From positions 11,039-75,038 of the forward strand of contig JABJNB010000018.1 of the NCBI GenBank assembly GCA_018659145.1: a stretch of 64,000 nucleotides of DNA. The letters are read 5' to 3'. This document shows, in pieces, positions 1,669 to 18,730 of the stretch. The position numbers and the translations under genes were made by a program. Origin of the DNA: Rickettsiales bacterium (GTDB lineage Bacteria > Pseudomonadota > Alphaproteobacteria > Rickettsiales > JABIRX01). The notes under the pieces were generated by a model. That model saw only the letters and a list, made by a program, of their open reading frames with translations. It made no database searches and was not told the DNA's origin. The stretch's first letter is position 1. Each line of letters begins with the position of its first letter.

Positions 1669-3885
1669 TCAATAAAACTTATTTTTCTTTGGAAATTTAA
1701 AAGGGACTAAATATCCTTTACTGCCTTTTGATACTAACCATTTTCTAAGATCTTTCTCGATAAAGCTCCGAGAGTTTAATTTGAAATTTAAACCTTCGTC
1801 AAAATTAATAGTGATAATATCAGAAATTGTAGAATCTGTCTGTTTCTGAATATTGACACCCCGTCCTTTTTGCATTTGCGGAATTTGATCTAATTTGATT
1901 ACAACCATTCTGCGAAGAGTATTTACCACAACTAATGAATCATGCCCTTCTACAAACGGCTCAATTCTCATCAAGTTATTATCCTTGCAAGAGAAGATGG
2001 CTCTTCCTGTTTTTTTCATGCTAAGTAAGCTCTCTGAATCAATGATAAATCCTCTACCATTATCACTAACTAAGATATATTTCTGGTCAGCTTTATGTTC
2101 AAAGATGGTAATGACTTTCTCCCCGGGAGCTAAATCAAATAGAAAGTTTAAAGCTTCACCCTCTTTAGCTGACATATCTAGCTTGTAATTTGTCAGCGTA
2201 TAGAATTGGCCTTTGTTAGTTGCGATAATTAATTTATCGGTATTTTGAGTTTCAATAATATATTGCTCGCTATCACCACTTTTATATTTGATTTTCTTTG
2301 TATCAATACCATGGCCCTTAATAGCTTTAATCCAGAAGTTATTTGAAATAGAAATTGTGATAGCTTCTTTTTCAATTAGCTCTTCTTCGTTAATATTTAC
2401 TTCCTCATGGTTTTTAATAAGCTTGGTGCGTCTTTTTGTAATATATTTATGTCTTAAGAATTCTGCCCTAACATCCTCATTTTCTTTAATCAGCTCTTTT
2501 TGCTGAGTTGCTTTACTTGATAAGATTCCGTTTAATGTTTTAGCCTCGGATGACAAGGCTTTTTGTTCTTTTGTAATTTTGATTTCTTCTAACTTCTGTA
2601 GCGCGCGTAATTTTATTTCCAGAATGGCTTCTACTTGTACTTCTGTTAATTCAAACTTGTTGATTAGGAATTGTTTTGCCTCATCTTCAAAGCGAATAAT
2701 TCTAATCACCTCATCCAAATTTAAATAAACAATAATAAAGCCAGCTAATATCTCCAATCTTCTGTTAATTTTAGCTAAACGAAAATTAGATTTCCGAATT
2801 AATATTTCATAGCGGTGTGCTATATATTGCTCTAACACTGCTTTTAAACCGCAAACTCTAGGTACTTGATGCTTGTCTAAAACATTCATATTTAGGCTGT
2901 AATGCATTTCAAGATCAGATTCTTTAAAGAGCTGCTCCATTAATATATTAGCTTCCACATTGCGATTTCTAGGTATAATTACAATACGGATATCTTCACT
3001 AGATTCATCGGCGATTTGCCCCATGCGTATAACTTTTTTACTGCTATATAGATCAGCTAGTTTTTCAAGTAAGCGTGATTTAGATAGCTGGTATGGAATC
3101 TCGGTAATAATAATTTGGTAAGCGCCATGGGGTAATTCTTCAATTTTCCATTTGGCTCTAAGCTTAAAACTTCCCCTACCCGTCTCGTACATCTTTAGGA
3201 AATCTTCTTGTTTATAAATAATCTCGCCACCAGTTGGAAAGTCTGGCGCTGGAATAAGATTTACTAAGTCTTTATTATTAGTTTCTGGTTCTCTTAATAG
3301 TAATTCTGTAGCATCAAGCAATTCTAAAATATTATGTGGAAAGATAGATGTTGCCATACCAACTGCTATACCTTCGCTTCCATTAGCTAGCAAATTTGGA
3401 AATACTGCGGGAAGCAATGCTGGCTCACTATCAGAATCATCATAGGTTGGGTTAAAATCAACAGTGTTTTTGTCGATATCACGCAAAAGCAACATCGCAA
3501 CAAATGTTAGCTTAGCTTCGGTATATCTCATGGCAGCTGGATTATCACCATCTACTGAGCCAAAATTACCTTGGCCGTCAACAAGTGGATAACGTGAAGC
3601 AAATATTTGCGCGAGTCGCACCAGCGCGTCATAGACAGAGCTATCACCATGGGGGTGATATTTACCAATTACATCACCCACGACTCTTGCTGATTTTTTA
3701 TAACCGGAATCAGGGTCCAAATGTAATTTATACATAGCGTATAATATGCGTCTATGCACAGGTTTCAAACCATCTCTTACATCTGGCAATGATCTTGAGG
3801 TAATTGTTGATAAAGCATAGGCTAGATAACGTTCTGATATGGCTGTGCCAAAGTCGATATCAATTGTGTTTAGTAATTTTCCCAT
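1669..3885 (-). CDS. parC: DNA topoisomerase IV subunit A
   Basis: 738 aa. N-terminus [34 protein letters not shown] and catalytic-Tyr region [10 protein letters not shown] are typical of GyrA/ParC. The size fits ParC. Confidence 0.85.
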
Positions 3886-3888
3886 TCT

Positions 3889-4623
3889 TTATTTATTGAT
3901 ATTGTTGATTAATACTTGCCGCATATAAGTTATCTCTTTGCCGTATTGTTTAAAATAATATTTATTTAAGAAATGTTCTGAGATCGAAGCAGTTTCATGC
4001 AAGCTATCCATATCAGGGTTATCCGAAAAATCCAAAAGGAATTTTGGTAATTTAAATATTTTATTACTATATTCCGTGCCATGCATCCTGCAAACCGCTC
4101 TCCCGGTCTTGGGCGAGATAAATATTAAGTCATTCGATTCACTACAAACAGCGCATTTGCTTAGATCTAGCCCATAGCCCATTTCTTTTAACAACATAAG
4201 CTCAAATATAAAATATTGCTTGTATAAATCAGTGGTAGTTTGATTGGGCTTTAGCATTGAATCAAGCAAATCAGTAAAGTTATCAAAGGCAATATCTAGC
4301 TGAATGTTTTCTGGAAATAATTTGCAAATAAGCTCAGAAGCCACCAACAGCATTAGCAGTTTGCTTTTGTTGCTTAGAAACTCAAAAAAATGGTTGCTCA
4401 TAACCTCGGTATCGCATCTAACCAAGCCGCTATCAAAGCGAGAATTTGCTCTAATACTAAATTTATTACCAATCTCATAAACATTATGATTTTTCTTAGC
4501 AAAAGCACCTTTGATAATACCTTTGAGGATTCCATGTTCTTTAGTTAAAAAACTAACTATGATAGAGGATTCTGAAAATTTCATCTTTGCCAGTAAAAAT
4601 GCTTCATCTTCTATTTTTATCAT
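3889..4623 (-). CDS. recO: DNA repair protein RecO
   Basis: 244 aa. RecO-like N-terminus (EAFLLAKMKFSESSIIVSFLTKEHGILKG) and Cys-rich zinc motif CAVC...CRMHG. 3-nt gap to parC. Confidence 0.8.
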   Translation of the reverse strand: MIKIEDEAFLLAKMKFSESSIIVSFLTKEHGILKGIIKGAFAKKNHNVYEIGNKFSIRANSRFDSGLVRCDTEVMSNHFFEFLSNKSKLLMLLVASELICKLFPENIQLDIAFDNFTDLLDSMLKPNQTTTDLYKQYFIFELMLLKEMGYGLDLSKCAVCSESNDLIFISPKTGRAVCRMHGTEYSNKIFKLPKFLLDFSDNPDMDSLHETASISEHFLNKYYFKQYGKEITYMRQVLINNINK

Positions 4624-4664
4624 TTATAAGTGGGATCCGATGTTAATTTGATTACAGATATAAA

Positions 4665-4841
4665 ATGGCAGAAATAGATAACAAGAGCAAAAATTCAAAA
4701 GCTGAGAATATAGTATCTAAAAATAACCCTACCTCCAAAACTCCAGCAACCAATAGTCCTAAAGAAATCGGCGGCCCAAAAGGCGCAGAGCCAACTCGTT
4801 ACGGAGATTGGGAAAAGAACGGTCGATGCACCGATTTTTAA
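4665..4841 (+). CDS. DUF1674 / SDHAF4-like small protein (58 aa, absent from the ORF track)
   Basis: ATG 4665 to TAA 4839..4841. C-terminus EIGGPKGAEPTRYGDWEKNGRCTDF is the DUF1674 signature typical of alphaproteobacteria and mitochondria. Confidence 0.75.
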   Translation: MAEIDNKSKNSKAENIVSKNNPTSKTPATNSPKEIGGPKGAEPTRYGDWEKNGRCTDF

Positions 4842-4874
4842 TCAGATTTAATTTGATGGGAGCAATTACCTAAA

Positions 4875-5606
4875 TCAAAGCTGATATTCCGGAGAATGGG
4901 TTTGTAACCATTTAGCAGCTAAACGATATTGGGGCATTTTTTTTAAGACCAATGCCCAAAACTCATCCGAATGATTGCGATGTTTTAGATGGCATATCTC
5001 GTGAAGAACTACATACTCTAAGACGGATTTTGGCGCTGCTATCAAGTGCCAGTTTATTTTAATTACTCCACCCTTAGTACAACTGCCCCACATATGGCTC
5101 AGCGCCTCTATTTTTACATCCTGATATTTTAGCCCTAGCATATTGCTATAATATTTAGCCATAAACCTCACATCTACCTTAACCCTATCTTTTAGCCAGA
5201 ATTTTAATGCCATCCCAGCAACGGATTCAACTTTATTTTCATCTATATGCATGGGTATATAAATAGAAAAACCATTTTGATAACTAACCGTAACAGAATC
5301 ACATTTCTCGCGTTTAATGCTTATGCGCATATTACGGCCACGGTAAGCTATTTTCGCACCTGATTGGAGTTTGGTATAATCATTATTCTCAAACCTACTT
5401 AACCAATCACTCATAGCTTCACGCTTGTCATAAACCCAGCGCCGTTTTTTATAGATGAAATCATGAACTTCTGCATCATCATTTATTGCAGGCACAATCA
5501 CCTCAACATCATTGGGCGTAACAATAATGCGCTTTCTAATGGCTAAATCACTATGAGTTATGCGGTATGGTATGTCGGTTTTACCAATGGATAATATTGG
5601 CATCAA
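4875..5606 (-). CDS. DUF45/YgjP-type (M48-like) zinc metallopeptidase
   Basis: C-terminal HExxH motif (LHEICHLKHRNHSDEFW). 4-nt overlap with the hsdR stop. Confidence 0.8.
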   Translation of the reverse strand: MMPILSIGKTDIPYRITHSDLAIRKRIIVTPNDVEVIVPAINDDAEVHDFIYKKRRWVYDKREAMSDWLSRFENNDYTKLQSGAKIAYRGRNMRISIKREKCDSVTVSYQNGFSIYIPMHIDENKVESVAGMALKFWLKDRVKVDVRFMAKYYSNMLGLKYQDVKIEALSHMWGSCTKGGVIKINWHLIAAPKSVLEYVVLHEICHLKHRNHSDEFWALVLKKMPQYRLAAKWLQTHSPEYQL

Positions 5607-8600
5607 GCAATCTTAATATAATGCTTCATTGCATATTCCTCTACTGGTGGTGGTAGCTCTTTAAAATTAGCCAAACCAACCTCATGAGCTTTAAGGCGTA
5701 CTTGCTGCCTGAGCTCCTTTTTTAATTGTTCACGTAAATGCCAACCATTCGGAGCTGTTTGATCTGAGATATATAACAAATTGATCTCAGCAGCAAGATG
5801 TGTTGCCACCTCTATGTTAGAACTACCATCTACGACCTCAATTACCCTACGCAAACCATAAGCTCGCTTATCCAAACCAGAAGTTTTATAACTAGACTCT
5901 TCCTTATCCAGATCTCTCGTCAAATTCTCACATTCTTTTAACGCATCTAAGGCGGAGATTTGCCCTTCTAAAAAACGCTTTAATATTTCCATTACCCGCT
6001 CAGAAAATGGTCCATAGCGAAGTGGATTATCAGCTATTTTTTCTTTTAGAATTTTTTTAAGCTCCGTACCTTTCCGAATAGCAGCCGTGCGAATTTGATC
6101 TTCTGTTTTTTTCTCAATATTAAAATCATCCAAAAACTCTGGATCTGTTAAATGACGTATTTTGCAAAGGGTAGAAATCCCGTTCACATCAAGATGTTCT
6201 TGCAGCATCTGACGTATCTTAGCGCTATAATCACCAAGCTCGAGCGATTCCTTTTGTTCAAAAACTTGCGTTCCCCAATGAATAAACCCTGCCACCCAGC
6301 GTAATATTGCGGTATATTCGAGCACAGATGGATCAGGTGTTAATGCTTCATATGCACGAATAAATAGCTTTGCCTTACGACGAAAACTATACCACACATC
6401 CTCCGAACCTAAGCCTTGAACTAACGCGTCATACTCTTGCTTTAACTCTAACTTACTTACATTACCCTCGCGCCTAATCCCTTTTAAATATGGCTTCAGC
6501 TCAGCATATGCAGCTTTTAACTCAGCGCGATCTACCTCTATATCTTTTAAAGCATTACCAACATCTTCCTTACGATAAGTCTGCAAAGCTTCATCAAGCT
6601 TATTGGTAACACCGATATAATCAACAATCAGACCAAATTGCTTATTACTATTATACACCCTGTTTGTCCTCGCTATAGCTTGAAGCAGACTATGTTCCTT
6701 GAGTGGATTATCCAAATACATCACAGCTTCAATAGGTGCGTCAAAGCCAGTCAAAAGTTTGTTACAGACTATTAAGAAAGACAATGGATGATCTTTCTTG
6801 GTAAAATTATCAATGAGAGTTATCTCCCCCTTTTTATCACGAACATGTTTTTTCAGCTCCGCTCGAAGTGTCGATTTATGATCATCCTCACTTGCATGAC
6901 CATCCGTTTGATTAGTCGAATAAACACATGCACTCATGCTCTTAGCTTTGTCCATGGCATCTTTCTCGCTTAGGCCCTCAGCAATATAATATTCAGTAAT
7001 AACCTTATCCAAAGCTTGTTTATATAACACCACAGCCTCTCTATCAATTGCGACTATTTGTGCTTTAAAACCATCAGGCTGAATATGATTTTTAAAATGT
7101 GTCCAGATATCAAAAGCTATAAGATCAATCCGTTTTTGGTGCTTTGCTAGCTCGGCAATAGTAACGCCACGCTTCTTTAATTGCTCAAGTTTTTCATCAG
7201 ATTCATTCGCAAACCATTGGTCAAAAACTACATCTAATTTCTTTGGATCAATTTGCCATTCCGTTTTGCGGCTCGTATAGCGAATAGGAATTGTTGCCCC
7301 ATCAGCAACCGCGTCATCAATGCCATATTTATCTAAATACCCTTCATCCCCTTCACTAAAATTAGCATATGTATCATGATCTTTTTTCTGTATAGGAGTT
7401 CCTGTAAAGCCAAAAAATTTAGCATCAGGTAAAGTAGCGCGCAAATATGCACCCAAATCTTTTTCTTGCGTGCGATGACATTCATCCACCAATACAACCC
7501 ATTTATCACTACTTGGAATCGGGATCTTCGATCCTTCGAACTTTTGTATTGTAGAGAGCAAAACCAAGCCTTGAGTATTCTGATTTAATTTTTCTTGTAA
7601 TGTCTTTAGTGACTTTACCTGAGTTGGATTAGGAAGACCACATGCGAGAAAAGTTTTAGAAATCTGATTATCCAAATCAACCCTATCAGTTAAGATAAGA
7701 ATGTTGGGGTTATGTTTTATATCATCAGTTAAATGTGTTCTGAGTTTTACAGCCGCATTGACCATGGTTAGTGACTTTCCAGAACCTTGCGTATGCCAAA
7801 TTAAACCACGCTTGCCTTGCTCAAGATATACCCGGTTAAAGATTTTATTTACCGCGCGAAATTGCTGATAACGACAAATTTTCTTTACTGCCCTGCCTTC
7901 ATCCGTTTCAAACACCACAAAATGCGCAAGCAAATCAAGCAAACGTGACGGCTCACATAAGCTATACATCCCCCTTGATAAATCATTACCGAAATCATCT
8001 TTAGCTTTAGGCCAAGGATCTTTCCACTCACCCCAATATTGCGAAGGTGAACTAGTAGCGCCATATAAAACTTTAATGCCGTCAGTTATAATATTGAATA
8101 AATTAGAATAAAATAAACGCGCTATATCCTGCTCATATTGTTTGATCTGATCAAAAGCTTCGCCAGTTTTATCTTTATAAGAAAGTGGGCTTTTGGCCTC
8201 AATCACCACAAGCGGAATACCATTGACATAGAGCACCATATCCGGAATACGGCTTTGCTGCGCTTGCACATAAAGCTGATTGGTTACGGTAAAATTATTA
8301 TTTTCAACATTCTTGAAATCAATAAGATGAATGGTTTTTTTATCACGCTGCCCTGAGATCGTGCGGCTATAATTACCAAGCAAGTTTTTAGTAAATTCCT
8401 TATTATCATTAATATGCAGCAAATCATGATATACCGCCCGCGCTACATCTTCATCCACTTCATTAATGCGCGCAATAGCAGCAATAGCTTCATCACGCAA
8501 AATAACCTGATTCAAACCATCCCGCGCAAGCTCATTATCTTTAGGCTTTAACCATTTCCAACCAAGGGAGATAAGTTCATCTATGCATGGTTTTTCTGCT

Positions 8601-8617
8601 AGTAAATATTCACTCAT
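5603..8617 (-). CDS. hsdR: Type I restriction enzyme, R subunit
   Basis: 1004 aa. Walker A HTQGSGKSLT, DEAD/DECH box VVLVDECHRTQ, SF2 helicase layout and typical HsdR size. Confidence 0.9.
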   Translation of the reverse strand: MSEYLLAEKPCIDELISLGWKWLKPKDNELARDGLNQVILRDEAIAAIARINEVDEDVARAVYHDLLHINDNKEFTKNLLGNYSRTISGQRDKKTIHLIDFKNVENNNFTVTNQLYVQAQQSRIPDMVLYVNGIPLVVIEAKSPLSYKDKTGEAFDQIKQYEQDIARLFYSNLFNIITDGIKVLYGATSSPSQYWGEWKDPWPKAKDDFGNDLSRGMYSLCEPSRLLDLLAHFVVFETDEGRAVKKICRYQQFRAVNKIFNRVYLEQGKRGLIWHTQGSGKSLTMVNAAVKLRTHLTDDIKHNPNILILTDRVDLDNQISKTFLACGLPNPTQVKSLKTLQEKLNQNTQGLVLLSTIQKFEGSKIPIPSSDKWVVLVDECHRTQEKDLGAYLRATLPDAKFFGFTGTPIQKKDHDTYANFSEGDEGYLDKYGIDDAVADGATIPIRYTSRKTEWQIDPKKLDVVFDQWFANESDEKLEQLKKRGVTIAELAKHQKRIDLIAFDIWTHFKNHIQPDGFKAQIVAIDREAVVLYKQALDKVITEYYIAEGLSEKDAMDKAKSMSACVYSTNQTDGHASEDDHKSTLRAELKKHVRDKKGEITLIDNFTKKDHPLSFLIVCNKLLTGFDAPIEAVMYLDNPLKEHSLLQAIARTNRVYNSNKQFGLIVDYIGVTNKLDEALQTYRKEDVGNALKDIEVDRAELKAAYAELKPYLKGIRREGNVSKLELKQEYDALVQGLGSEDVWYSFRRKAKLFIRAYEALTPDPSVLEYTAILRWVAGFIHWGTQVFEQKESLELGDYSAKIRQMLQEHLDVNGISTLCKIRHLTDPEFLDDFNIEKKTEDQIRTAAIRKGTELKKILKEKIADNPLRYGPFSERVMEILKRFLEGQISALDALKECENLTRDLDKEESSYKTSGLDKRAYGLRRVIEVVDGSSNIEVATHLAAEINLLYISDQTAPNGWHLREQLKKELRQQVRLKAHEVGLANFKELPPPVEEYAMKHYIKIA

Positions 8618-9750
8618 TATATCCTCACTAATTTTAGGAGTGGTTCAAACGCATAAAGGGCTGGCCTTCTGCCAGATGCTTCTTCAAGAGTTATAATTAG
8701 ATTTTCTTCCAAAAGTATCCGCGCAAATCTTGCTGCCGTGGATTCAGGAATGCCACTTAATTTTGTAAAATTATTATTTCTAAAATAAGGATAAGTAAAA
8801 ATAAAATCTAAAGCTCTAAGATGCCATTTTGTTCCAAGTTTATCTTCAAAAATAAGTTTCATATTTTCATATAGTTCATGAATATCCTCCACAATTTTAA
8901 GATTGCTTATAGCTTGTTTTTCCATCGCTTCTAAGAAAAAAACACACCAATTTGTCCATTCTCCTTTTTCTGATACCGCCTTCATTGTATCGATATATAA
9001 ATCTTTATGCTCTTCAAAATAACCACTGATATAAAAATGAGGTGCAGATATTACGCCCGCATTCCATAGCATCAAAGTAATAATCATACGTCCCACACGA
9101 CCATTACCATCTTTAAAGGGATGCAGGGCTTCAAATTCAACATGAGCTAGAGCGGTTTTAATTAAATTTTGCTCATCATTTTCTGCTATAAAACGGAGTA
9201 AATCTCTCATTCCATCATTTAACTTTTCTGGAGATATTGGCGTAAACAGAATATTCCTTTTGGATCTGTCAACAATGTAGTTTTGCTCTATTTTAAACTG
9301 CCCTGGTGATTTATCTGCGCCGCGTCCTATAGATAATAATTGCGCATGCATTGAGCGAATTAAAAATTCTGATATTTTATAGCCGCTTTCTATTTCTCCC
9401 TGCGCGGTTTTTAAAGCTCTTTGATACATAATCGTTTCACGCACCTCTGTGCGCATATCGTTATTATCAGTATCATTAATATTATCTGCCTCATATCTTA
9501 AAATTTCATCCATCGTACTCACCGTCCCTTCCATACGAGAAGATATTACAGCTTCCTGATTACGCAATGGAGCCAGCAAAAACTCACTATTATGCATATT
9601 TTTTAACATTTGATCAAAACGAGCAATAGCATCAGAAGCCTTGCTGAGAGGCTTGACGATTTTACTATAATCTAAATCTTTGGGTGGGAATTGATCATAA
9701 TGATATGACACGGCTTTATCAAAATTTAGCTCTGAAACTGAATTTGCCAT
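8617..9750 (-). CDS. fic: Fic family protein (Fic_N + Fic core + C-terminal winged HTH), class II auto-inhibited
   Basis: Canonical HPFKDGNGRVGR (aa 210-221, nt 9088..9123). Inhibitory [ST]xxxE[GN] motif SSRMEG (aa 70-75). HTH-like C-terminus. 1-nt overlap with hsdR. Confidence 0.9.
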   Translation of the reverse strand: MANSVSELNFDKAVSYHYDQFPPKDLDYSKIVKPLSKASDAIARFDQMLKNMHNSEFLLAPLRNQEAVISSRMEGTVSTMDEILRYEADNINDTDNNDMRTEVRETIMYQRALKTAQGEIESGYKISEFLIRSMHAQLLSIGRGADKSPGQFKIEQNYIVDRSKRNILFTPISPEKLNDGMRDLLRFIAENDEQNLIKTALAHVEFEALHPFKDGNGRVGRMIITLMLWNAGVISAPHFYISGYFEEHKDLYIDTMKAVSEKGEWTNWCVFFLEAMEKQAISNLKIVEDIHELYENMKLIFEDKLGTKWHLRALDFIFTYPYFRNNNFTKLSGIPESTAARFARILLEENLIITLEEASGRRPALYAFEPLLKLVRI

Positions 9751-9796
9751 TTTGCTCCTTTAAAGTTTATTTGTTTATCAAAAAAAGTCATATATG

Positions 9797-9900
9797 AGAG
9801 ACAAGCTATTTTGACTCTCTAAGTTAAACATCAAACAAGTTTGTCTGTCAAGTTTTGCCTTTTTTGAACAACAAACTATTTTGAGACTCAAAATTGAGCG
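9797..9900 (-). promoter_or_regulatory. Repeat-containing hsdS-fic intergenic region (candidate promoter/operator of fic-hsdR)
   Basis: acaagctattttgactc (9801..9817) and acaaactattttgagactc (9871..9889), plus a weaker third copy (9835..9856). TTGACA on the minus strand at 9851..9846. Confidence 0.35.
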
Positions 9901-9930
9901 ACAAAACCCTAGTAATCTACCTCCGTATTA

Positions 9931-11106
9931 TTATGAAACCCTCACCCGAACCTTCCCCGTAAGCAAATCATTCATCAGGCCTTTTTTTAGGGTTTGGAGG
10001 GTGGTTAGTTTTTTGGTTTCGGTGGTTATTTGGTTATCGGCGGATTCTAGTATGGAGGCTATGGCTTTTTGTTCTGGGAGGGGTGGGATAATTATAGGAA
10101 CTTTTCTTAGGCCATTTAGCGGTATTTCTTTAAGAGCACTACCGTTCACACGCTTTAATAAGTCCTCTCTCACTACTGGAGACCTTAATGCCCAGAGTAA
10201 AAAAGATGGATGCAAAAGTTCGTCTTTAGGAGATATGAGTGCCAATCCCCTTGTTAAGTTAGCGCCTATCAAGTTCTCTTTAGCAAGAATAACATGTCCA
10301 ATCTCTCCACGAAGAGCCATCATTATATCATTTTCTTTCAGCATAGTACGTTTATAACCATTACTGATTTCTTCAGATGTTCTAATCATGCTTGCAGTGT
10401 TTAATTGCTCTTTTACAATATCCACTACTCTTACACACAGAATTCCATCAGGTATATTATCTCCTGTTTGAACAATTCCATAAGAAATGCTTTTATTCAC
10501 CACCTCTGCAAGCGGCTTAACCTCCCACCCCTCAGGAATCTTGCCAAGTGGGGAGGGTTTGAATTTGGTGTGGGCGATGCCGCGGGTTAGTAGGGTTTGG
10601 AGTAGGCCTTGTTTTACTTTTTTGGTCTGGGCTATGACAGCTTTGCTAGCCTCAATCGCCAAATCCACCCCACCCAAAACCTCCGCAATCCGCTTTTGCT
10701 CTGGAAGTGGTGGTCGTAAATAACTTAACTCTTTGAGTTGTTTAAAATGCCTTGAATATCCTTCGTTTCTTAAAGGGGAATTCAAAAGTAGATAATAGAG
10801 AAATATAGCAGAATTATCACTAGAGTTTTTTATAATTTTTATACCATCAGCACCTTGCGCAAATGGAAAGTCTACAAATTTAAAAACTCTAGTATGATCT
10901 CCAAAAACTACTACTGGCAAATCATTCCTATATATTGCATCTTCATCATCTGTATAACCCGCAATGAAAGCATCACCTTGGTCTATAATAGGAAACTTCC
11001 CATTATTTCTATACTCTAAAGACTTTAGCTTTTTATTAGGCAACGTTACTTTACCTGTAATACTCGCAATATCTACAACTCTCCACCCTTCAGGAATCAT
11101 AACCAA
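9931..11106 (-). CDS. hsdS: Type I R-M specificity subunit
   Basis: Two variable target-recognition halves, each followed by a conserved spacer: PPLPEQKRIAEVLGGVD... and PPLPEQKAIASILESAD...LLTGKVRV. Confidence 0.9.
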   Translation of the reverse strand: MVMIPEGWRVVDIASITGKVTLPNKKLKSLEYRNNGKFPIIDQGDAFIAGYTDDEDAIYRNDLPVVVFGDHTRVFKFVDFPFAQGADGIKIIKNSSDNSAIFLYYLLLNSPLRNEGYSRHFKQLKELSYLRPPLPEQKRIAEVLGGVDLAIEASKAVIAQTKKVKQGLLQTLLTRGIAHTKFKPSPLGKIPEGWEVKPLAEVVNKSISYGIVQTGDNIPDGILCVRVVDIVKEQLNTASMIRTSEEISNGYKRTMLKENDIMMALRGEIGHVILAKENLIGANLTRGLALISPKDELLHPSFLLWALRSPVVREDLLKRVNGSALKEIPLNGLRKVPIIIPPLPEQKAIASILESADNQITTETKKLTTLQTLKKGLMNDLLTGKVRVRVS

Positions 11107-12601
11107 GCCCCTGTAAATGTTTCATCATCACATTCTCAGCTTCATCACGCTTTGCTATCAAATCCTTTAAACTACTTAACTCAGCCTTCACATCAATCGG
11201 CTCTTCTTCTTCTGCGGTATGCACATAGCGGGCGATGTTTAGGTTGTGGTCATTGGTGGTTATCTCGCTGATTAGCACAAGGCGGGCGAAGCGTTCTACA
11301 TCTTGCCAGCTTTCATATGTGCTAACAAAACGCGCTACATTTTCTTCAGTTAGTGTGTTTTGTGCTTTGCCTTCTTTATATTCTTCCGCGCCATTGATAA
11401 TCATCACCTTGCCAGTTTTATCAGCTGGTTTGTTTTTATTTATCAGCAAAATACAAGCCGGAATACCTGCGCCATAAAATAGATTAGGTGCAATCCCAAT
11501 CACTGCTTCAATAAGATCTTGATTTAGTAACCCTTCACGAATTCGCCCTTCCGCACCACCACGAAATAATACGCCATGTGGCAATACCACAGCCATTCTT
11601 CCATCATCTTTAAGACTTGCGATCATATGCTGAACAAAGGCCAAATCACCATAAGATTTTGGCGGGCAGCCATAAATATCACGTCCATATGGATCACCCT
11701 TATCCCAAATATCATAACCCCATTCTTTAAGTGAGAATGGCGGATTAGCAATCACCCGATCAAACTGCTTTAAACCTTTACTACTCTCTGAAACCAAATT
11801 GCGTGGATTACGTAGCGTATCACCACGATCAATCACGGCATCGTCAATATCATGCAAGAACATATTCATCTTGCAAATCGCCCAAGTATTTAAATTCTTT
11901 TCTTGGCCTGCAAGGGATAATGTTTTTGGATTTAGGCCGGCTTCCTGCAAGGCATGATATGATTGAATCAACATACCACCTGATCCACAGGTAGGATCAT
12001 AAACGCTCATCCCCTCTTTTGGCGCGAGCATTTTAACCATCAACTTCACGACATATTCAGGAGTGTAAAACTCACCACCTTTCTTACCTGAATCATCTGC
12101 AAATTTCTTTATCAAATATTCATAACTATTGCCAAGCATATCCGCGCTTACATCGCTATTGCGCAAACGGTATTTATCAAAATGCTGAATTAGCTTTTGT
12201 AATATGCTATCTGGAAAACGTTGTTTATTATTAAAATCAATATCTTGAAAAATATCTTTCAAACGCAAATTCGCATCTTCTATCTTATGAAAAGCATTAT
12301 TTAAATGCTCACCAATATTAGTACTCTGCTTTGCTAGATCATCCCAGAACGCTCCTTCTGGAATAGCAAACCGATGCTCATCTGGATCCGCGGCTAGTTC
12401 TTCATCTTTAAATGTTGCATAAGCCTGCTCATATTCCTCCTGCCACACATCACTCAGACGTTTAAAAAACAGAAGCCCAAATATATAATGCTTATAATCC
12501 GAGCTATCAATACTCCCGCGCAGGATATCAGCTGCCCTCCATAGATGTTGCTCTAATTGAGCTTGAGTAAATTTCTCATCAATCGCATCTTCTTTTTCCA
12601 T
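11090..12601 (-). CDS. hsdM: Type I R-M N6-adenine DNA methyltransferase subunit
   Basis: SAM-binding DPTCGSGGML and catalytic NPPF (VIANPPFSLKEW). 17-nt overlap with hsdS. Confidence 0.9.
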   Translation of the reverse strand: MEKEDAIDEKFTQAQLEQHLWRAADILRGSIDSSDYKHYIFGLLFFKRLSDVWQEEYEQAYATFKDEELAADPDEHRFAIPEGAFWDDLAKQSTNIGEHLNNAFHKIEDANLRLKDIFQDIDFNNKQRFPDSILQKLIQHFDKYRLRNSDVSADMLGNSYEYLIKKFADDSGKKGGEFYTPEYVVKLMVKMLAPKEGMSVYDPTCGSGGMLIQSYHALQEAGLNPKTLSLAGQEKNLNTWAICKMNMFLHDIDDAVIDRGDTLRNPRNLVSESSKGLKQFDRVIANPPFSLKEWGYDIWDKGDPYGRDIYGCPPKSYGDLAFVQHMIASLKDDGRMAVVLPHGVLFRGGAEGRIREGLLNQDLIEAVIGIAPNLFYGAGIPACILLINKNKPADKTGKVMIINGAEEYKEGKAQNTLTEENVARFVSTYESWQDVERFARLVLISEITTNDHNLNIARYVHTAEEEEPIDVKAELSSLKDLIAKRDEAENVMMKHLQGLGYDS

Positions 12602-12718
12602 TACAACTTCACCCTTAATTACATAGCAAGATCGTAAATACTATTACCCGACCCTAAATGCAATTACTTATAAAGGAGCCTTAACATGAATAGGCAGAAC
12701 CAAGAGAATTCTTGGAGG

Positions 12719-13459
12719 CTAGGTTTTAGGATAAAGCTTAATTAGGCATGTCACTATAAAATAGGCAATAACTATGAGGACTCCTGCGGGTAGATCAAAT
12801 GTTATAGCAAAAACAATTCCTAAGATTACTGAAATAATTCCACATGCCCAAGAAATGCATAATGGGTTTTTCTTATTCTTGGCTGCAATTGCTGGAAGTA
12901 TAAGGCTGGCAAAAACAACATAGATTCCAACTAGCTGGACTGATGATGTGATTGCAAAAGCAAAAATTACATAAAACCCAATACCGCTGCGTATTTTGGG
13001 TTTTAAAAACCATAATCCTATTACGCCTATATAAATTGGTAAATGTTGTAGAATATCGTGAAATGTAACAAATAGAATTTGGCCAGATAGCAAATGTTTT
13101 ATCTCATCTGCCCCGTGAGCATGATTTGATAAAAACAAAATACTCAAAGACGCAGCTAACACAAAGCTACAACCAATAATTGCCTCCTCAATATCGGGGG
13201 CTGTTTTTTCTATATAATAGAATAATAGACTAGCGGAGATTGCAAAGAAAAGCGCAATAGGTTGATAGGACCAGCTATGCTCTGGAAAGCAAATACTCGC
13301 TACAATTAACCCAAATCCAGCAATCTGAGCAACCGCAAGATCAATAAAAACTATTCCCTTTTCTAAGACCGAACTTCCAAGCAATCCATGAGTTAGGGCA
13401 ACTAATAAACCAACCACTAAGGCTGGACTCATTATTTCTATCATTTCCAGACTTATCAT
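12719..13459 (-). CDS. Metal (Zn/Mn-type) ABC transporter permease, ABC-3 family
   Basis: 246-aa polytopic hydrophobic protein. 4-nt overlap with the upstream ZnuA-like gene. Confidence 0.7.
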   Translation of the reverse strand: MISLEMIEIMSPALVVGLLVALTHGLLGSSVLEKGIVFIDLAVAQIAGFGLIVASICFPEHSWSYQPIALFFAISASLLFYYIEKTAPDIEEAIIGCSFVLAASLSILFLSNHAHGADEIKHLLSGQILFVTFHDILQHLPIYIGVIGLWFLKPKIRSGIGFYVIFAFAITSSVQLVGIYVVFASLILPAIAAKNKKNPLCISWACGIISVILGIVFAITFDLPAGVLIVIAYFIVTCLIKLYPKT

Positions 13460-14373
13460 TTACTTGCCTCTAAGATCAAATTAATTGTGTTATCAAAAAG
13501 AGAGAATAGATCATTGCTCTGCTTATCGCCTCCAACTGTATATGGCAGTACCAATTCTTTTATTTGAGTTTTTTTATGAATCCAATTGCTAGCATCTTGC
13601 GGATCAAAAGGAGTTCTAATAATAAATTCTGTCGGCTCTTTTTGCAAAATTACTAAGAGATTCTCTAGATGGCTTGAAGTTGGCGCAATTCCTGGCTTTG
13701 ATTCCAGAACTGCTACTTCATCTAACTCAAGCCAATCAATTAAATAACTAAAAGATTTATGATGAGGCAAAACTTTTAGTCCCTTTAGTTGCGATGCTCT
13801 CATTTTCCACTCTCTGATAGATTCGCTCCACTTAGTCATGAACTTGTCATAATTATTTTGATAAGCTTCAGCATTACTAGGATCAAGATCTTGTAAGCGA
13901 TTATTGAGCTCTTTTGCGACCAATAAAATATTATGTGGATTTAAATGAATATGAGGATTGCCTTGTGCATGAATATCTCCTCTAGATCTATCCAGCACTT
14001 CTGATTTTCCAAGTCTAGGCACAAAGTCAGAAGCCATAAAATGACCAACCTTGCCCACCTGAACATTCCTATTAGCCTTAGACAGCAAGATTGGTAACCA
14101 TCCAACCTCCAGGTCTGATCCTGAGCAAATTAATAAATCCGCTTTCCTGACTTTAGCAATGAGACTAGGCTTAGCTCGGATATAATGCGGATCTTGGGCA
14201 GCATATGTAGCGGAGAATGAGTCTACATAACTACCGCCAATTTCTTGAGAGAGAGCATGCCATTCAGGCTCGCAAGCAAAGATATTGACTTTTGCTTGTG
14301 CAGATATTGGCAATAACATAGAAGTTATTGCCAATAAAGAGATAATATAAAATCTTGGCATTCTAATTACCAA
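13456..14373 (-). CDS. Metal ABC transporter substrate-binding protein (ZnuA/TroA-like)
   Basis: Signal peptide. FACEPEWHAL...AQDPHYIRAKPS...ADLLICSGSDLEVGWLP pattern of cluster-9 metal-binding proteins. Confidence 0.75.
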   Translation of the reverse strand: MVIRMPRFYIISLLAITSMLLPISAQAKVNIFACEPEWHALSQEIGGSYVDSFSATYAAQDPHYIRAKPSLIAKVRKADLLICSGSDLEVGWLPILLSKANRNVQVGKVGHFMASDFVPRLGKSEVLDRSRGDIHAQGNPHIHLNPHNILLVAKELNNRLQDLDPSNAEAYQNNYDKFMTKWSESIREWKMRASQLKGLKVLPHHKSFSYLIDWLELDEVAVLESKPGIAPTSSHLENLLVILQKEPTEFIIRTPFDPQDASNWIHKKTQIKELVLPYTVGGDKQSNDLFSLFDNTINLILEASK

Positions 14374-14375
14374 AA

Positions 14376-15704
14376 TTAATATTTATGAGCACTATGAGCA
14401 CCAAAGCTCATTACATATTGCAACATAATTTGATTATCATGATTGTTTTGGGATAATTCCTCATGATTATATTGTAAGCGCAAACGACTAAATTCACTAT
14501 TTGTCCAATCAATCATTGCGGTATATGATTTTGGATCATAATTATTTGAGTCTAGAGAACTTCCAATTAATCCAGTTGGAGTATTAGGAGTTAGGAGCTC
14601 ACTATATCTTAATCCTACACGCCACTGAGATTTGAATTTATAAATAGTTTGGAGATACCATCCTGAAGAATTATCATCAAAATCAACCATACCCGTTAAA
14701 GTACTACCATCTTCATTAATTTCTTCATAAGTGCCAGACTCCTTTCGATAAAAATACTCACCTTGAATAGTTAATTCCTGATTTTTAGCATTACCAGTTG
14801 GGGCAAAAACATATTTCAGATCAGCAATATAAAGGTCGGTATCACCAATAAAAGTCACAGTATCCTCATTAGTAACTCTTCCAGCCTTTGCTTCACCAGA
14901 GAGAGTAGATAAGCCAAATCTCCAGCTTTGATTATCGCCAATATCACCGCCTATCCTAGTGTAAGCAGAATAAGATCCAGTGCCATCACCACCTCCAAAT
15001 GGGAAGTCATCACCCCTAAATGTTCCTCCACCAATTTCTGCATAAAGATCAATTGGCAAAATATAAGAAATTTGGGCTCCATCATCATTAAAGCTATTAT
15101 TTAGAAAGGCTCTATATGGTAAAGGACGATCAGCGAAATCATCTGTGTGAGCATGATTGGCATTTAGATATCCTAAATTCCAAAATGACCTACCAGCCTT
15201 TATTTCAAGTCCAGTAGGTAAACCAAATTCTGGAGAGGTGCTAATAAATGCTTCCTCTAATTCTATTATATCTGCTCCATCTTCATTAACGATCGCTGCA
15301 GTTACACTACCAAAGAATTTATCATCAATATTAGAAGAAAAATTAAGTTCAGATTCGCCGATTGAAAACCCCTCTTTGCCTCTTTCTCCTTCTTCACCAA
15401 TACCAAAGCCAGAAATTTCAGAGGCGTTTTTAGAAAAAGCAGAATATTTACCGTTTAAAATAACCCCTATTGATGGGTTAAATTTATTATCATAAATATT
15501 ACGCGTAGTATTAGCGTTATTTAATATTGAGTTATTTTTATCTAACTTATTTTCTAAATCAGATATTCGCTTCTCATATGAATCCTTGATATTGTTAAAT
15601 TCATTTTTAAGAGATTTGATTTCTGAGTTAGTGGATGCAAATGCAGAGCTTGCACACAAAGAAGCTGATAGCACAATATGTGCCATAATTTTTATTTTAG
15701 TCAT
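14376..15704 (-). CDS. Putative outer-membrane beta-barrel protein (porin-like) with N-terminal coiled coil
   Basis: Signal peptide (ASSAFAS), heptad segment IKDSYEKRISDLENKLDK, alternating Gly/aromatic beta-strand-like composition, aromatic C-terminal residue. Confidence 0.5.
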   Translation of the reverse strand: MTKIKIMAHIVLSASLCASSAFASTNSEIKSLKNEFNNIKDSYEKRISDLENKLDKNNSILNNANTTRNIYDNKFNPSIGVILNGKYSAFSKNASEISGFGIGEEGERGKEGFSIGESELNFSSNIDDKFFGSVTAAIVNEDGADIIELEEAFISTSPEFGLPTGLEIKAGRSFWNLGYLNANHAHTDDFADRPLPYRAFLNNSFNDDGAQISYILPIDLYAEIGGGTFRGDDFPFGGGDGTGSYSAYTRIGGDIGDNQSWRFGLSTLSGEAKAGRVTNEDTVTFIGDTDLYIADLKYVFAPTGNAKNQELTIQGEYFYRKESGTYEEINEDGSTLTGMVDFDDNSSGWYLQTIYKFKSQWRVGLRYSELLTPNTPTGLIGSSLDSNNYDPKSYTAMIDWTNSEFSRLRLQYNHEELSQNNHDNQIMLQYVMSFGAHSAHKY

Positions 15705-15800
15705 TTTCCTAATAATTTATAATTTCTAAATATAAAGCAAAATAGCCACATATCACATTAGTGTTACAAGGCTGATTGCTTTAAAATTGTTTTTAGTTGT

Positions 15801-16088
15801 TTAGTTAGGAAAAAAAGGGGGCGCTCTAGGGTTGTAGAGTGAGTCTTTACCATCAAAAGGTAAAATTTCTTTTGGTAGAGTTACTTTGGACGTTAAGAGA
15901 TTTGGAGTTATTAACTCAGAGAGATTGTTGTTTAATAATTTATTGTTATCTGCACTTAAGCAAATATCACAAGCTTTGCCATTATGCTCATGTTCTTCAA
16001 AGCCATATTTACTAGCATGCACAAGCGAAAAAGCCTGCATACTAAGGAAGATGGTGATGATAAATAATAAATTAAACTTTCTATTCAT
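15801..16088 (-). CDS. Small secreted His/Cys protein (DUF2946-like, CxxC)
   Basis: Signal peptide, then FEEHEHNGKACDIC. Position next to the metal-uptake cluster. Functional call is tentative. Confidence 0.4.
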   Translation of the reverse strand: MNRKFNLLFIITIFLSMQAFSLVHASKYGFEEHEHNGKACDICLSADNNKLLNNNLSELITPNLLTSKVTLPKEILPFDGKDSLYNPRAPPFFPN

Positions 16089-16116
16089 AGAGTGTAAAAA
16101 ATTAACTCAGAAAAGC

Positions 16117-16151
16117 ATAAAGATGTTGAAACTAATTCTCAACATCTTTAT
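16117..16151. promoter_or_regulatory. Perfect 13-bp inverted repeat with 9-nt spacer (operator or terminator)
   Basis: ataaagatgttga (16117..16129) and tcaacatctttat (16139..16151), between the SIMPL-like gene and the small CxxC gene. Confidence 0.4.
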
Positions 16152-16339
16152 GCGAAAAGTTTGCTATGAATCCTGCGAGGTAGTATTGACTTACCTGGTA
16201 GTTACTACACCAGATATAATGTTTTGTATCTCTGCACTAAAATAATTGGCTTTCCTGAGTTGAAACAGCTCCGGACATGCATATGGTTGAGGCCCTACGG
16301 ATTTTGCTATGGGCGCGTAACAAAATATAAACAGGGCTC

Positions 16340-17047
16340 CTAATAAGCAATATGCAGTGTTACTGAGGCTACGATCTCTTGCTCTTTTGGTAAGATAGTT
16401 GGCTTTGGAGAAACTTTTTGAGTTTCAGGTCTAATTTTATATTCAAATTTTGGATAGCGTATATCCGATGTATCGATCTCTATCTTCATAACAGCTTTAC
16501 GTCTTAGCTCTAATTGCTTTAGCACTTTATCTGCCTTGGCTAGAGCTTTATCAATCGCGAACTTAATGGCTTCTTCCTTTTTGCTTTCCAGAAGATCCTC
16601 AGGGGCTGAGAATTTAATATCATGGATTCTATCAATTTTATTTTTTGATAAGAAGTTTAAATATATAGCAACCATATCGCTCGGGACTTTAAATGAGACT
16701 GTGGAGATGGTATCAAAGCCAATCACTTCTCTAGCTTGGGATTCGTAATTATATACAGGGTTTGAAATAAAAGAGGTTGTTTGCAACTCTTTAACTTCCT
16801 CGGTCTCTGATCTTAAATATGTAACCACATTTAATGATTGAGACGCGTAATCTTGATAAGATATATCTGCGTCTGGTCCTCTACCAATCACATCAAATGA
16901 TATTACAGCTTCGGTTGTTTTGAATTTTAAAGTGTGGCTAGCTGATATCTCTAATGTTTTTTGCTCCGCTAAGACATTTGTAGTGGATATAAAGATTAAG
17001 CTTAGAGCAAGTATCAGCTTGTTTAAATTTGTATTTAATCGCTTCAT
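16340..17047 (-). CDS. SIMPL/DUF541-like periplasmic protein
   Basis: Signal peptide. Size and layout resemble BP26/SIMPL proteins. 1-nt overlap with the ribBA stop. Confidence 0.45.
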   Translation of the reverse strand: MKRLNTNLNKLILALSLIFISTTNVLAEQKTLEISASHTLKFKTTEAVISFDVIGRGPDADISYQDYASQSLNVVTYLRSETEEVKELQTTSFISNPVYNYESQAREVIGFDTISTVSFKVPSDMVAIYLNFLSKNKIDRIHDIKFSAPEDLLESKKEEAIKFAIDKALAKADKVLKQLELRRKAVMKIEIDTSDIRYPKFEYKIRPETQKVSPKPTILPKEQEIVASVTLHIAY

Positions 17048-18150
17048 TATTTTACTTCAAGGAATTTTGTAATCTCTATATCATAACCTTGTAATCCAAT
17101 TACAGATTTTGGATTGTTGGTTAGTAGTTGCATTTTCTTAATACCAAGATCTGTTAATATCTGGGCACCAATGCCGTAATCTCTTATTTCTTTTGGCTCA
17201 ACGTCTTGAGTTATTTTGGACTCTATCGAGCTCGAAACCAAATCTTTTTGCATAGAGCGCAAAATAACTACAACTCCCGCTCCCATCTGATCTATTTGTT
17301 TCATCGAGCGTATTAACATATCAGAATCCTTGCCTGAATGTAGAATGTCCCGTAAGAAATTCTGAGAATGCATGCGAACAGGCACTTCATCTAAAGTTGA
17401 TATATCGCCCTTTATCAGCACAACATGCTCGGCATATTCGATATTGCTATGGTAAACTACAAGGTTAAAATCTCCATGCAAAGTACTGATATCACAGCTG
17501 TTAAACCTTGATATAAGTTTGTCATTACGTCTTCGGTAATTTATTAAGTCGGCAATCTTAGCAATTTTTAAATTATGTTCTTTTGCAAATATGGCGAGGT
17601 CTGGCAGACGTGCCATCTCACCATTATCTTTCATAATCTCACAAATAACCCCAGAAGCATTTAATCCGGCAATTATTGATATATCAACCGCGGCCTCTGT
17701 GTGACCGGCCCTAGTTAAGACACCGCCATCTTTGGCTAAAAGGGGAAACACATGTCCGGGAGATACAATATCTAAAGCTGATTTTGAAGGGTCGATTGCA
17801 GATTGAATTGTGTGTGCCCGGTCATATGCTGAAATACCGGTAGTAACACCCTCTTTAGCTTCAATAGATATTGTAAATGCAGTTCTATTCCGAGATTTGT
17901 TATGCTGGGCCATGAGCGGCAAGCTTAACTCCTCAACCCTCTTGCCACTTAATGCTAAGCAAATTAATCCGCGACCATATTTTGCCATGAAGTTAATGAC
18001 ATCGCTGGTTGCAAATTGCGCTGGGATAACTAAGTCCCCTTCATTTTCTCGATTCTCATCATCAACCAAGATAAACATCTTACCGCGTTTTGCATCTTCG
18101 ATAATATCTTCGATTTTAGATATTTTTATTTCTTCATTTTTTATAGACAT
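17047..18150 (-). CDS. ribB: 3,4-dihydroxy-2-butanone-4-phosphate synthase with C-terminal GTP-cyclohydrolase-II-like domain
   Basis: DHBP synthase motifs (DDENRENEGDLV, RAGHTEAAVD). The C-terminal half aligns to RibA but lacks the Cys triad (VRMHSQNFLRDIL in place of VHSECLTGD...CDCG). Confidence 0.85.
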   Translation of the reverse strand: MSIKNEEIKISKIEDIIEDAKRGKMFILVDDENRENEGDLVIPAQFATSDVINFMAKYGRGLICLALSGKRVEELSLPLMAQHNKSRNRTAFTISIEAKEGVTTGISAYDRAHTIQSAIDPSKSALDIVSPGHVFPLLAKDGGVLTRAGHTEAAVDISIIAGLNASGVICEIMKDNGEMARLPDLAIFAKEHNLKIAKIADLINYRRRNDKLISRFNSCDISTLHGDFNLVVYHSNIEYAEHVVLIKGDISTLDEVPVRMHSQNFLRDILHSGKDSDMLIRSMKQIDQMGAGVVVILRSMQKDLVSSSIESKITQDVEPKEIRDYGIGAQILTDLGIKKMQLLTNNPKSVIGLQGYDIEITKFLEVK

Positions 18151-18730
18151 CTCCTGCTCCTACAATATATTTGGCTACCATATCAATCTCAATATTAACT
18201 TTATCTCCAATCTTAGCTTTCGCTAGAGCGGTATTTTCTAAAGTATGAGGAATGATATTAATCAATATAGCATTCTCCAATACCTTGTTCACGGTAAGTG
18301 ATATACCATTAATTGCAACAGAACCTTTATCTATGAAGAAGGCCCGGTGTTTAGTCTCTAGACTAATGTTAAATTGAAATGAGTTATTAATTGGAACAAT
18401 ATCTAAAATATCAGCTATAAAATCTACATGACCAGAGACCATATGCCCTGATAATCCGTCTGATAATTTAAGTGATTTTTCAATATTAACATGATCACCC
18501 TCTTTGACATCAGCAAAATTAGAGCAATCTATAGTTTCTTTAGATAGATAGAATTTCAGGTTACGACCATCAATTTCAGTTACTGTAAGGCAAACGCCAT
18601 TTGTGGCTATGGATTCTCCAAGAACAATGTTTTTAGTGCTTGTTAGCTCAAGGATAATCTCAATATCAGACCCACCAACATGTTTAATAGCGTTAATTTT
18701 ACCTATATCTGTAATTATTCCTGTGAACAT
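18134..18730 (-). CDS. ribE: Riboflavin synthase alpha chain
   Basis: MFTGIITDIGK start. Two internally repeated lumazine-binding halves (NGVCLTV / NGISLTV). Confidence 0.85.
   Translation of the reverse strand: MFTGIITDIGKINAIKHVGGSDIEIILELTSTKNIVLGESIATNGVCLTVTEIDGRNLKFYLSKETIDCSNFADVKEGDHVNIEKSLKLSDGLSGHMVSGHVDFIADILDIVPINNSFQFNISLETKHRAFFIDKGSVAINGISLTVNKVLENAILINIIPHTLENTALAKAKIGDKVNIEIDMVAKYIVGAGDVYKK

Follow-up and report, generated by a model that had tools for sequence, protein, structure and literature searches.

We analysed a stretch of 64,000 nucleotides, hereafter the window, from the metagenome-assembled genome (MAG) of a marine Rickettsiales bacterium (GenBank assembly GCA_018659145.1, contig JABJNB010000018.1, positions 11,039 to 75,038 of the forward strand); all positions are given in window coordinates. 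The subject of this study is a block of five genes that encodes a type I restriction-modification (R-M) system, a Fic protein and a predicted zinc metallohydrolase of the YgjP-like/DUF45 family. The list of open reading frames (ORFs) gives the order hsdM, hsdS, a 180-nt gap, fic, hsdR and DUF45, all on the minus strand (Table 1), at exactly the positions where an earlier reading, made from the sequence alone, had placed them. That sequence-only reading saw in the Fic protein a possible abortive-infection effector gated by the R-M enzyme, with the DUF45 protein as a possible further partner.

A type I R-M operon with a fic gene ahead of hsdR

Pfam, NCBIfam and PADLOC concur on the identity of the genes and bear out their assignment to a type I R-M operon. 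HsdM scores 275 bits against TIGR00497, for which the cut-off is 243 bits, and carries an NPPF catalytic motif at residue 286, which places it among the gamma-class N6-adenine methyltransferases. HsdS has two target-recognition domains, Methylase_S having matched it twice. HsdR reaches 531 bits against TIGR00348 (cut-off 285 bits) and shows the motifs GSGKS and DECH together with the nuclease residues D126...E140-A-K142, the signature of an N-terminal PD-(D/E)xK nuclease joined to a superfamily 2 (SF2) translocase. With NPPF kept in HsdM and GSGKS, DECH and D...EAK in HsdR, the R-M genes look intact.

The genes are closely packed. The overlap between hsdS and hsdM is 17 nt, and the stop codon of fic and the start codon of hsdR share one nucleotide in the sequence TAATG. 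At the junction of hsdR and DUF45, which reads TTGATG, a start at the ATG at 5603 gives an overlap of 1 nt and a start at the TTG at 5606 one of 4 nt; the ATG is probably at least as likely a start as the TTG. Thus the 1-nt overlap between fic and hsdR stands as first described, and the 4-nt overlap between hsdR and DUF45 applies only to the TTG start. From this arrangement, co-transcription and translational coupling of fic, hsdR and DUF45 are probable.

The block had also been described as richer in GC than its neighbours. This is correct for the block as a whole, whose GC content of 0.383 is the highest among 226 segments of 7.7 kb in the window (mean 0.355, standard deviation 0.015), but not for fic alone, and GC at third codon positions (GC3) is unremarkable across the block. 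The fic gene has a GC of 0.349 and a GC3 of 0.257, compared with 0.385-0.403 and 0.31-0.33 in the flanking hsd genes, and its lower GC is consistent with a separate origin for this cargo.

Table 1. Coordinates and assignments of the features at the locus
Feature	Position	Strand	Assignment and remarks
hsdM	11090..12601	-	Methyltransferase subunit, 503 aa; Pfam N6_Mtase (E = 3e-105) and HsdM_N; TIGR00497; PADLOC MTase_I
hsdS	9931..11106	-	Specificity subunit, 391 aa; Pfam Methylase_S in two stretches; PADLOC Specificity_I (E = 2e-56)
fic cassette 5' region	9751..9930	-	Non-coding 180-nt gap; TTGACA-like -35 element; repeated ...TCAAAATAG(T/C)TTGT... elements
Palindrome	9797..9818	-	22 bp, AGAGTCAAAATAGCTTGTCTCT; 68 nt ahead of the fic start codon (ATG); may serve the Fic wHTH as operator
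fic	8617..9750	-	Predicted SoFic-family class II Fic AMPylase, 377 aa; PADLOC SoFic PDLC03963; Pfam Fic_N and Fic
hsdR	5603..8617	-	Restriction/translocase subunit, 1004 aa; TIGR00348 (E = 4e-159); Pfam HSDR_N, SWI2_SNF2, T1R_D3-like, T1RH-like_C
DUF45	4875..5606	-	Predicted YgjP-like/DUF45 zinc metallohydrolase; Pfam PF01863 (E = 2e-47)
Lineage-specific insertion	4853..16339		11.5 kb, between DUF1674 (4665-4841, +) and SIMPL (16340-17047, -); holds the R-M/Fic block and the metal-uptake cluster
Metal-uptake cluster	12719-16088		ABC-3 permease, ZnuA-like binding protein, 442-aa ORF without a family match, 95-aa ORF

The Fic protein is a member of the SoFic family

The Fic protein matches the PADLOC SoFic profile PDLC03963 with E = 1.3e-104, its residues 14-375 covering profile positions 7-358 of 361. 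Against the NCBIfam SoFic equivalog it scores 154.7 bits, under the cut-off of 550 bits, and we therefore regard it as a member of the SoFic family and not as an orthologue of the Shewanella oneidensis enzyme. Among the solved SoFic and EcSofic crystal structures, it aligns with PDB entry 9vjc over residues 27-372 (E = 3e-31) and with the SoFic entries 3eqx and 3zcn over residues 31-363 (about 1e-26). It additionally matches two Fic-containing candidate families of PADLOC, PDC-S04 and PDC-S24; the exact protein has no record in the contig index. Both motifs noticed at the outset are intact and lie where they were said to lie. The inhibitory motif SSRMEG occupies residues 70-75 (window 9526-9543), inside the Fic_N match and with its glutamate correctly numbered as E74, and the catalytic motif HPFKDGNGRVGR occupies residues 210-221 (window 9088-9123). 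An N-terminal inhibitory helix of the (S/T)xxxE(G/N) type makes this a class II Fic protein, and its catalytic motif follows the pattern HxFx(D/E)GNGRxxR. An intact class II Fic is therefore encoded at the place where PrrC sits in EcoprrI, as had been proposed. The C-terminus is a predicted winged helix-turn-helix (wHTH)-like domain, homologous to that of SoFic.

SoFic has been published as a stand-alone Fic-domain anti-phage protein that is protective as a single gene (Millman et al. 2022 preprint). EcSofic, the homologue from Escherichia coli, is toxic and dimeric, was called abortive by the authors and has a 47-aa antitoxin, AS1, encoded downstream (PMC12249575). The S. oneidensis protein AMPylates switch I of elongation factor Tu (EF-Tu) and thereby blocks translation; through its C-terminal wHTH it also binds the promoter of its own gene (bioRxiv 10.64898/2026.07.09.737422). 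The window protein resembles this single-gene system in its full-length PADLOC match, its inhibitory SxxxEG, its HPFxDGNGRxxR, its wHTH-like C-terminus and the stand-alone position of its close homologues, and N-terminal dimerisation is part of the class II architecture that it shares. Unlike class I FicTA and the SoFic-AS1 pair, the window fic has no adjacent antitoxin gene, and its inhibitor is intramolecular. Since the protein belongs to the SoFic family, for which toxicity and defence are reported, a toxic, abortive-infection-type role is plausible, as the sequence-only reading had suggested. The abortive-effector reading is thus reasonable, yet it is already the accepted view for the SoFic family.

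A candidate operator upstream of fic

The 180 nt between hsdS and fic may act as a promoter region, to judge from the elements listed in Table 1. All six frames of this gap are closed, which rules out a hidden small antitoxin or RptR-like ORF there. Scanning 4.5-13 kb for sigma-70 promoters and terminators gave numbers at chance level (30 against 29.4 expected, and 7 against 6.6, respectively), a result that supports neither the presence nor the absence of an internal promoter.

Within the gap lies a 22-bp palindrome, and we searched for its class, AGnGACAAA-N4-6-TTTGTCnCT, in the 200 nt upstream of fic at loci L001-L041. The upstream regions of 35 fic homologues hold 24 sites, compared with 1.2 +/- 1.1 in dinucleotide shuffles, and the density of 0.68 per upstream region compares with 0, 0 and 0.06 in three control regions; since the pattern was defined post hoc from the same data, the exact figure errs on the optimistic side, though the difference is large. 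The class is present upstream of stand-alone and embedded fic genes alike. Taken together with the reported binding of SoFic to its promoter, the enrichment suggests wHTH-mediated autoregulation, with the Fic protein probably acting by way of its C-terminal wHTH as a repressor of its own promoter. The fic cassette most likely arrived with its own 180-nt promoter/operator region.

Close homologues of the Fic protein mostly stand alone

Close homologues of the Fic protein, with identities of 51-81%, are spread over many phyla. Among species-representative genomes, none of 33 full-length loci (Fic 51-74% identical, 22 of them with at least 3 kb downstream) has HsdM, HsdR, HsdS or DUF45 near fic. 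These negatives are meaningful because the same queries, the window HsdR and HsdM, do detect an R-M system that is 25-29% identical at a metagenome locus, L036. The Fic homologue at that locus (P0004, 76% identical) sits in the order integrase-hsdR-hsdM-hsdS-fic-integrase, with an unrelated Hsd family. Over positions 57-11263 of L036, fic follows hsdS and closes the series hsdR-hsdM-hsdS-fic; its 172-nt upstream gap holds two palindrome copies, and two integrases bracket the whole. Three further metagenome homologues (P0005, P0006 and P0007, 74-76% identical) occupy unrelated, partly mobile contexts, and two homologues on plasmids (58% and 50% identical) both stand alone. Some homologues sit in conjugative and prophage-like regions.

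Counting the genome and metagenome loci, 36 of the 37 close homologues with readable flanks have no R-M locus around them. This Hsd-free setting in 33 of 33 genomes, three of four metagenome contexts and both plasmids is the very outcome that the sequence-only reading had named as refuting an R-M-gated Fic. With its close homologues mostly standing alone, a PrrC-like dependence of the Fic protein on Hsd is unsupported.

A partial match was also seen in a contig of high GC (0.56) from a MAG labelled 'Rickettsiales bacterium', where positions 10001-10162 of L034 match Fic residues 1-54 only (67%, from the locus search). It may be a gene remnant; a separate tblastn search did not recover it.

The hsdS-hsdR junction is a swap site for defence and toxin cassettes

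What precedes hsdR varies even among the four nearest relatives of the window HsdR. Two of them (P0122 and L043, HsdR 72-73% identical to that of the window) carry DarT with Macro, one carries SIR2_2 and one carries nothing; the relative with SIR2_2 has RhuM between hsdM and hsdS. We extended the comparison by tblastn and ORF calling to 80 further loci with HsdR 30-60% identical, of which 36 have nothing at the junction between hsdS and hsdR, 25 have an insert there and 8 are unclear. By sequence clustering, the 101 cargo ORFs form 88 groups. When the cargo ahead of hsdR was scanned with Pfam and PADLOC, a SoFic-type Fic turned up three times, in the window, L062 and L096, and these three proteins are only 22-29% identical to one another, which argues for independent captures. 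Other cargo includes Shedu SduA (twice), DarT with Macro, SIR2_2, GmrSD_N, HepT with MNT, AbiEii, Abi_C, a Cap15 receptor domain and WYL, and the slot also carries IS200 and rve transposases and classical toxin-antitoxin (TA) modules. The Fic protein is thus one among many interchangeable cargoes, and the junction is a swap site for defence and toxin cassettes. The order hsdS-fic-hsdR-DUF45, which was to be surveyed in related genomes, is not conserved: hsdR-DUF45 alone is kept while the content of the slot changes.

The diverse cargo genes nearly always end a few nucleotides from the hsdR start codon, or overlap it (L043-L125), and cassette exchange therefore seems to be precise almost to the codon. 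At empty-slot loci hsdS and hsdR overlap by 4 nt. The interval between hsdM and hsdS forms a second cargo position (L044, L056, L067, L073 and others), with RhuM (4), ThsB-like TIR (3), NYN (3), DUF3800, AbiJ, PemK/MazF and HNH proteins.

A YgjP-like hydrolase gene accompanies hsdR

The gene downstream of hsdR behaves differently from the slot upstream of it. A YgjP-like gene abuts or overlaps the hsdR stop codon in all four of the nearest relatives (HsdR 65-73% identical). In the larger sample, a DUF45 homologue lies directly 3' of hsdR at 60 of the 61 loci with at least 1 kb downstream, and among the loci with this arrangement are 28 whose slot is empty and 14 whose slot is filled. HExxH, which reads HEICH at residue 201 of the window protein (window 4989-5003), is invariant across all 64 aligned homologues. 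The gene lies likewise at 8001-8741 of L138 and 8055-8714 of L139. Annotated plasmids of Rhizobium and of the archaeon Haloferax have the order hsdM-hsdS-hsdR followed by a 'SprT family zinc-dependent metalloprotease'.

Because DUF45 follows hsdR whatever the slot contains, it belongs with hsdR and not with the Fic protein, and its proposed role as a partner of the latter falls away. Possibly this type I R-M family has in the HExxH hydrolase a fourth functional component that has so far gone unrecognised, such as a built-in protease that alleviates restriction or destroys anti-restriction proteins. Its only PDB relative, a weak one, is the minigluzincin proabylysin (4jiu, E = 0.03). COG1451 was reportedly tied to type I R-M in Makarova's 2011 treatment of 'defence islands'. 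Our literature search, including one for COG1451/YgjP together with restriction, found no paper giving a YgjP-like/DUF45 protein a role in R-M.

The block lies in a lineage-specific insertion

The R-M/Fic block is a horizontally acquired islet. In two related lineages, whose RecO proteins are 72% and 65% identical, ...ribE-ribBA-SIMPL adjoins DUF1674-recO-parC directly, and SIMPL adjoins DUF1674 in the relatives L132, L134 and L135. By blastn, homology between the window and its relatives ends at 4852 and restarts at 16340; in the window SIMPL, ribBA and ribE occupy 16340-18730. Since DUF1674 adjoins SIMPL-ribBA-ribE in the relatives, the metal-uptake genes belong to the same 11.5-kb segment as the R-M block. 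The suggestion of a defence islet that splits core genes is thus upheld in that the block is missing from this site in two related lineages, and corrected in that its flank is not a core metal-uptake cluster but part of the inserted segment, 4853-16339. Window positions 2470-6291 recur with 99.9% identity in six independent metagenome contigs, which indicates that the junction of hsdR-DUF45 with DUF1674 is stable in the population. We found no tRNA and no integrase at the borders of the island, and direct and inverted repeats there are at chance level. Relatives of the R-M element, unlike the window locus, are flanked by integrases.

The metal-uptake cluster at 12719-16088 is absent from this site in the relatives. 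At the far edge of the segment, between the 95-aa ORF and SIMPL, a perfect 15-bp inverted repeat with a 9-nt loop (16115-16153) has the look of a terminator hairpin.

Discussion

The layout of this locus is that of the RRDM island of enteropathogenic E. coli (EPEC), which has the order rptR-hsdM-hsdS-darT-darG-hsdR-M48 peptidase (PMC12255303, NAR 2025) and whose authors state that the hsdS/hsdR site may be a hotspot of recombination where defence systems lodge. The two loci share the plan hsdM-hsdS-cargo-hsdR-zinc metallopeptidase in a single orientation. They differ in that the window has a SoFic-type Fic where EPEC has DarTG2, has no flanking insertion sequence (IS) elements or integrases, and has no rptR-like gene upstream of hsdM, where the 117 nt between the hsdM start (12601) and the next gene (12719) contain no ORF. 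At the DNA level hsdR and DUF45 gave no match to E. coli genomes, and the likeness therefore rests on architecture and literature. A systematic survey (Payne et al. 2024 preprint) has catalogued the genes found inside type I R-M, BREX and DISARM loci, with diverse defence genes in type I R-M, and our locus shares with it the embedding of a defence gene in type I R-M and, through the matches of the Fic protein, the PADLOC PDC families. SoFic is not mentioned in the main text of that preprint, nor do SoFic or PDC-S04 strings occur in the parts of its supplement that were searched. We found no paper on a Fic protein inside type I R-M, and the RptR and SoFic papers are silent on such a placement. 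The window locus thus neatly exemplifies a layout that is already on record and is not a new kind of system.

We propose that the block combines two stacked, independent layers, type I restriction and a SoFic-type abortive effector that works autonomously, and that the YgjP-like hydrolase is accessory to HsdR; we give this reading a probability of about three in four. The operon would be a horizontally acquired type I R-M system of a family in which hsdR is followed by a YgjP-like zinc hydrolase, annotated as M48 or SprT-like. As the first layer, HsdMSR would methylate self DNA and cut unmodified incoming DNA. As the second, the Fic protein would be restrained by its intramolecular SxxxEG helix, and its own promoter repressed via the wHTH. 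On infection, activated Fic would AMPylate an essential host protein, which for S. oneidensis SoFic is EF-Tu, so that translation stops and infection is aborted. The DUF45 hydrolase would serve the R-M enzyme. The enzymatic activity, target and trigger of the Fic protein, its autoregulation, the co-transcription and the independence of the layers are what we infer from these comparisons.

Several observations weigh against two independent layers, and some of them are also what sets the window fic apart from the SoFic single-gene system. It is embedded in an R-M operon and tightly coupled to hsdR by the 1-nt overlap. Two of the seven closest homologues with readable context, those of the window and L036, directly follow hsdS, and SoFic-like genes recur in the slot more often than any other family, with 3 of 52 proteins. 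Overlap, adjacency to hsdS and recurrence together leave room for synergy or shared regulation between Fic and type I R-M. As the identity to the biochemically studied SoFic proteins is about 25-30%, both EF-Tu as the target and the defence phenotype are extrapolations from those proteins. There is also no AS1-like small antitoxin ORF beside fic, as hsdR begins at the fic stop and the upstream gap is closed, and this bears on how basal toxicity would be controlled.

The gating proposed at the outset takes PrrC as its model. In EcoprrI, PrrC is a latent toxin encoded between hsdS and hsdR, with an ABC-ATPase-like N-domain and a C-terminal anticodon nuclease (ACNase), and is masked by the Hsd complex. 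Applied to the window, the Hsd complex would mask the Fic protein and a phage anti-restriction factor would free a suicide AMPylase, with DUF45 as an extra partner. As a latent toxin gene in prrC's place, joined to hsdR by its overlap, fic fits this picture, and since SoFic, like PrrC, finally blocks translation, arrest of the infected cell would be expected of both. The window protein nevertheless has the fold and chemistry of an AMPylase with its own inhibitor; searches of Pfam, NCBIfam and PADLOC gave no PrrC match, the protein being Fic_N plus Fic. SoFic-like Fics do recur in the slot of three unrelated R-M lineages, and a 76%-identical homologue follows hsdS in another R-M family, but the same slot takes unrelated self-contained modules such as DarTG and Shedu, and DUF45 is there with the slot filled or empty. 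PrrC itself is hardly ever encountered outside type I R-M loci (Payne et al. 2024 preprint). The Fic clade lacks this near-exclusive embedding, its close homologues being overwhelmingly stand-alone, and SoFic protects as a single gene, equipped with its own intramolecular inhibitor and its own candidate operator. We therefore consider Hsd gating of the Fic protein improbable.

It is similarly unlikely that the wHTH-bearing Fic protein is mainly a transcription factor of the C-protein or RptR kind, timing HsdR through the palindrome on the fic-hsdR-DUF45 transcript, with AMPylation secondary. The conserved palindrome 68 nt upstream of fic invites such a reading, as does the binding of SoFic and CccR to their own promoters, but stand-alone fic genes carry the same operator, so that it belongs to the cassette and is no adaptation to hsdR. 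The hsdR gene does lie immediately downstream with no terminator detected between, and no RptR-type regulator is found in the 117 nt upstream of hsdM; yet relatives with an empty slot express hsdR without fic, and the fully intact catalytic and inhibitory motifs argue that enzymatic function is retained.

Very improbable, in our view, is a selfish toxin cassette in a permissive hotspot that stabilises the island or hitch-hikes without any part in phage defence here, for although the slot also holds transposases and TA modules, fic differs in GC from the Hsd genes in a way that suggests a separate history, and homologues occur in conjugative and prophage-like regions, anti-phage activity has been shown experimentally for the SoFic family, most slot cargo belongs to recognised defence families, and fic is intact and tightly packed in the operon, suggesting maintenance by selection.

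We return to the two-layer reading, beside which we see a slim chance of a functional link between this Fic clade and the restriction enzyme, the Fic protein being either gated by Hsd as PrrC is or acting through the wHTH and the operator at 9797-9818 on the coupled hsdR-DUF45 genes. If this regulatory wiring were true, one sensor would set the restriction and abortive layers together. None of our findings overturns current views. They draw attention to the near-invariant pairing of hsdR with a YgjP-like gene and to a conserved palindrome that precedes SoFic-family genes and is a candidate operator. The locus also offers a compact natural construct of 7.7 kb for distinguishing additive from synergistic action of R-M and SoFic layers. 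It adds one more well-resolved case of a type I R-M operon at which exchangeable second-line defence cassettes dock, and it shows that in a streamlined marine alphaproteobacterium the cassette can be a SoFic-type Fic.

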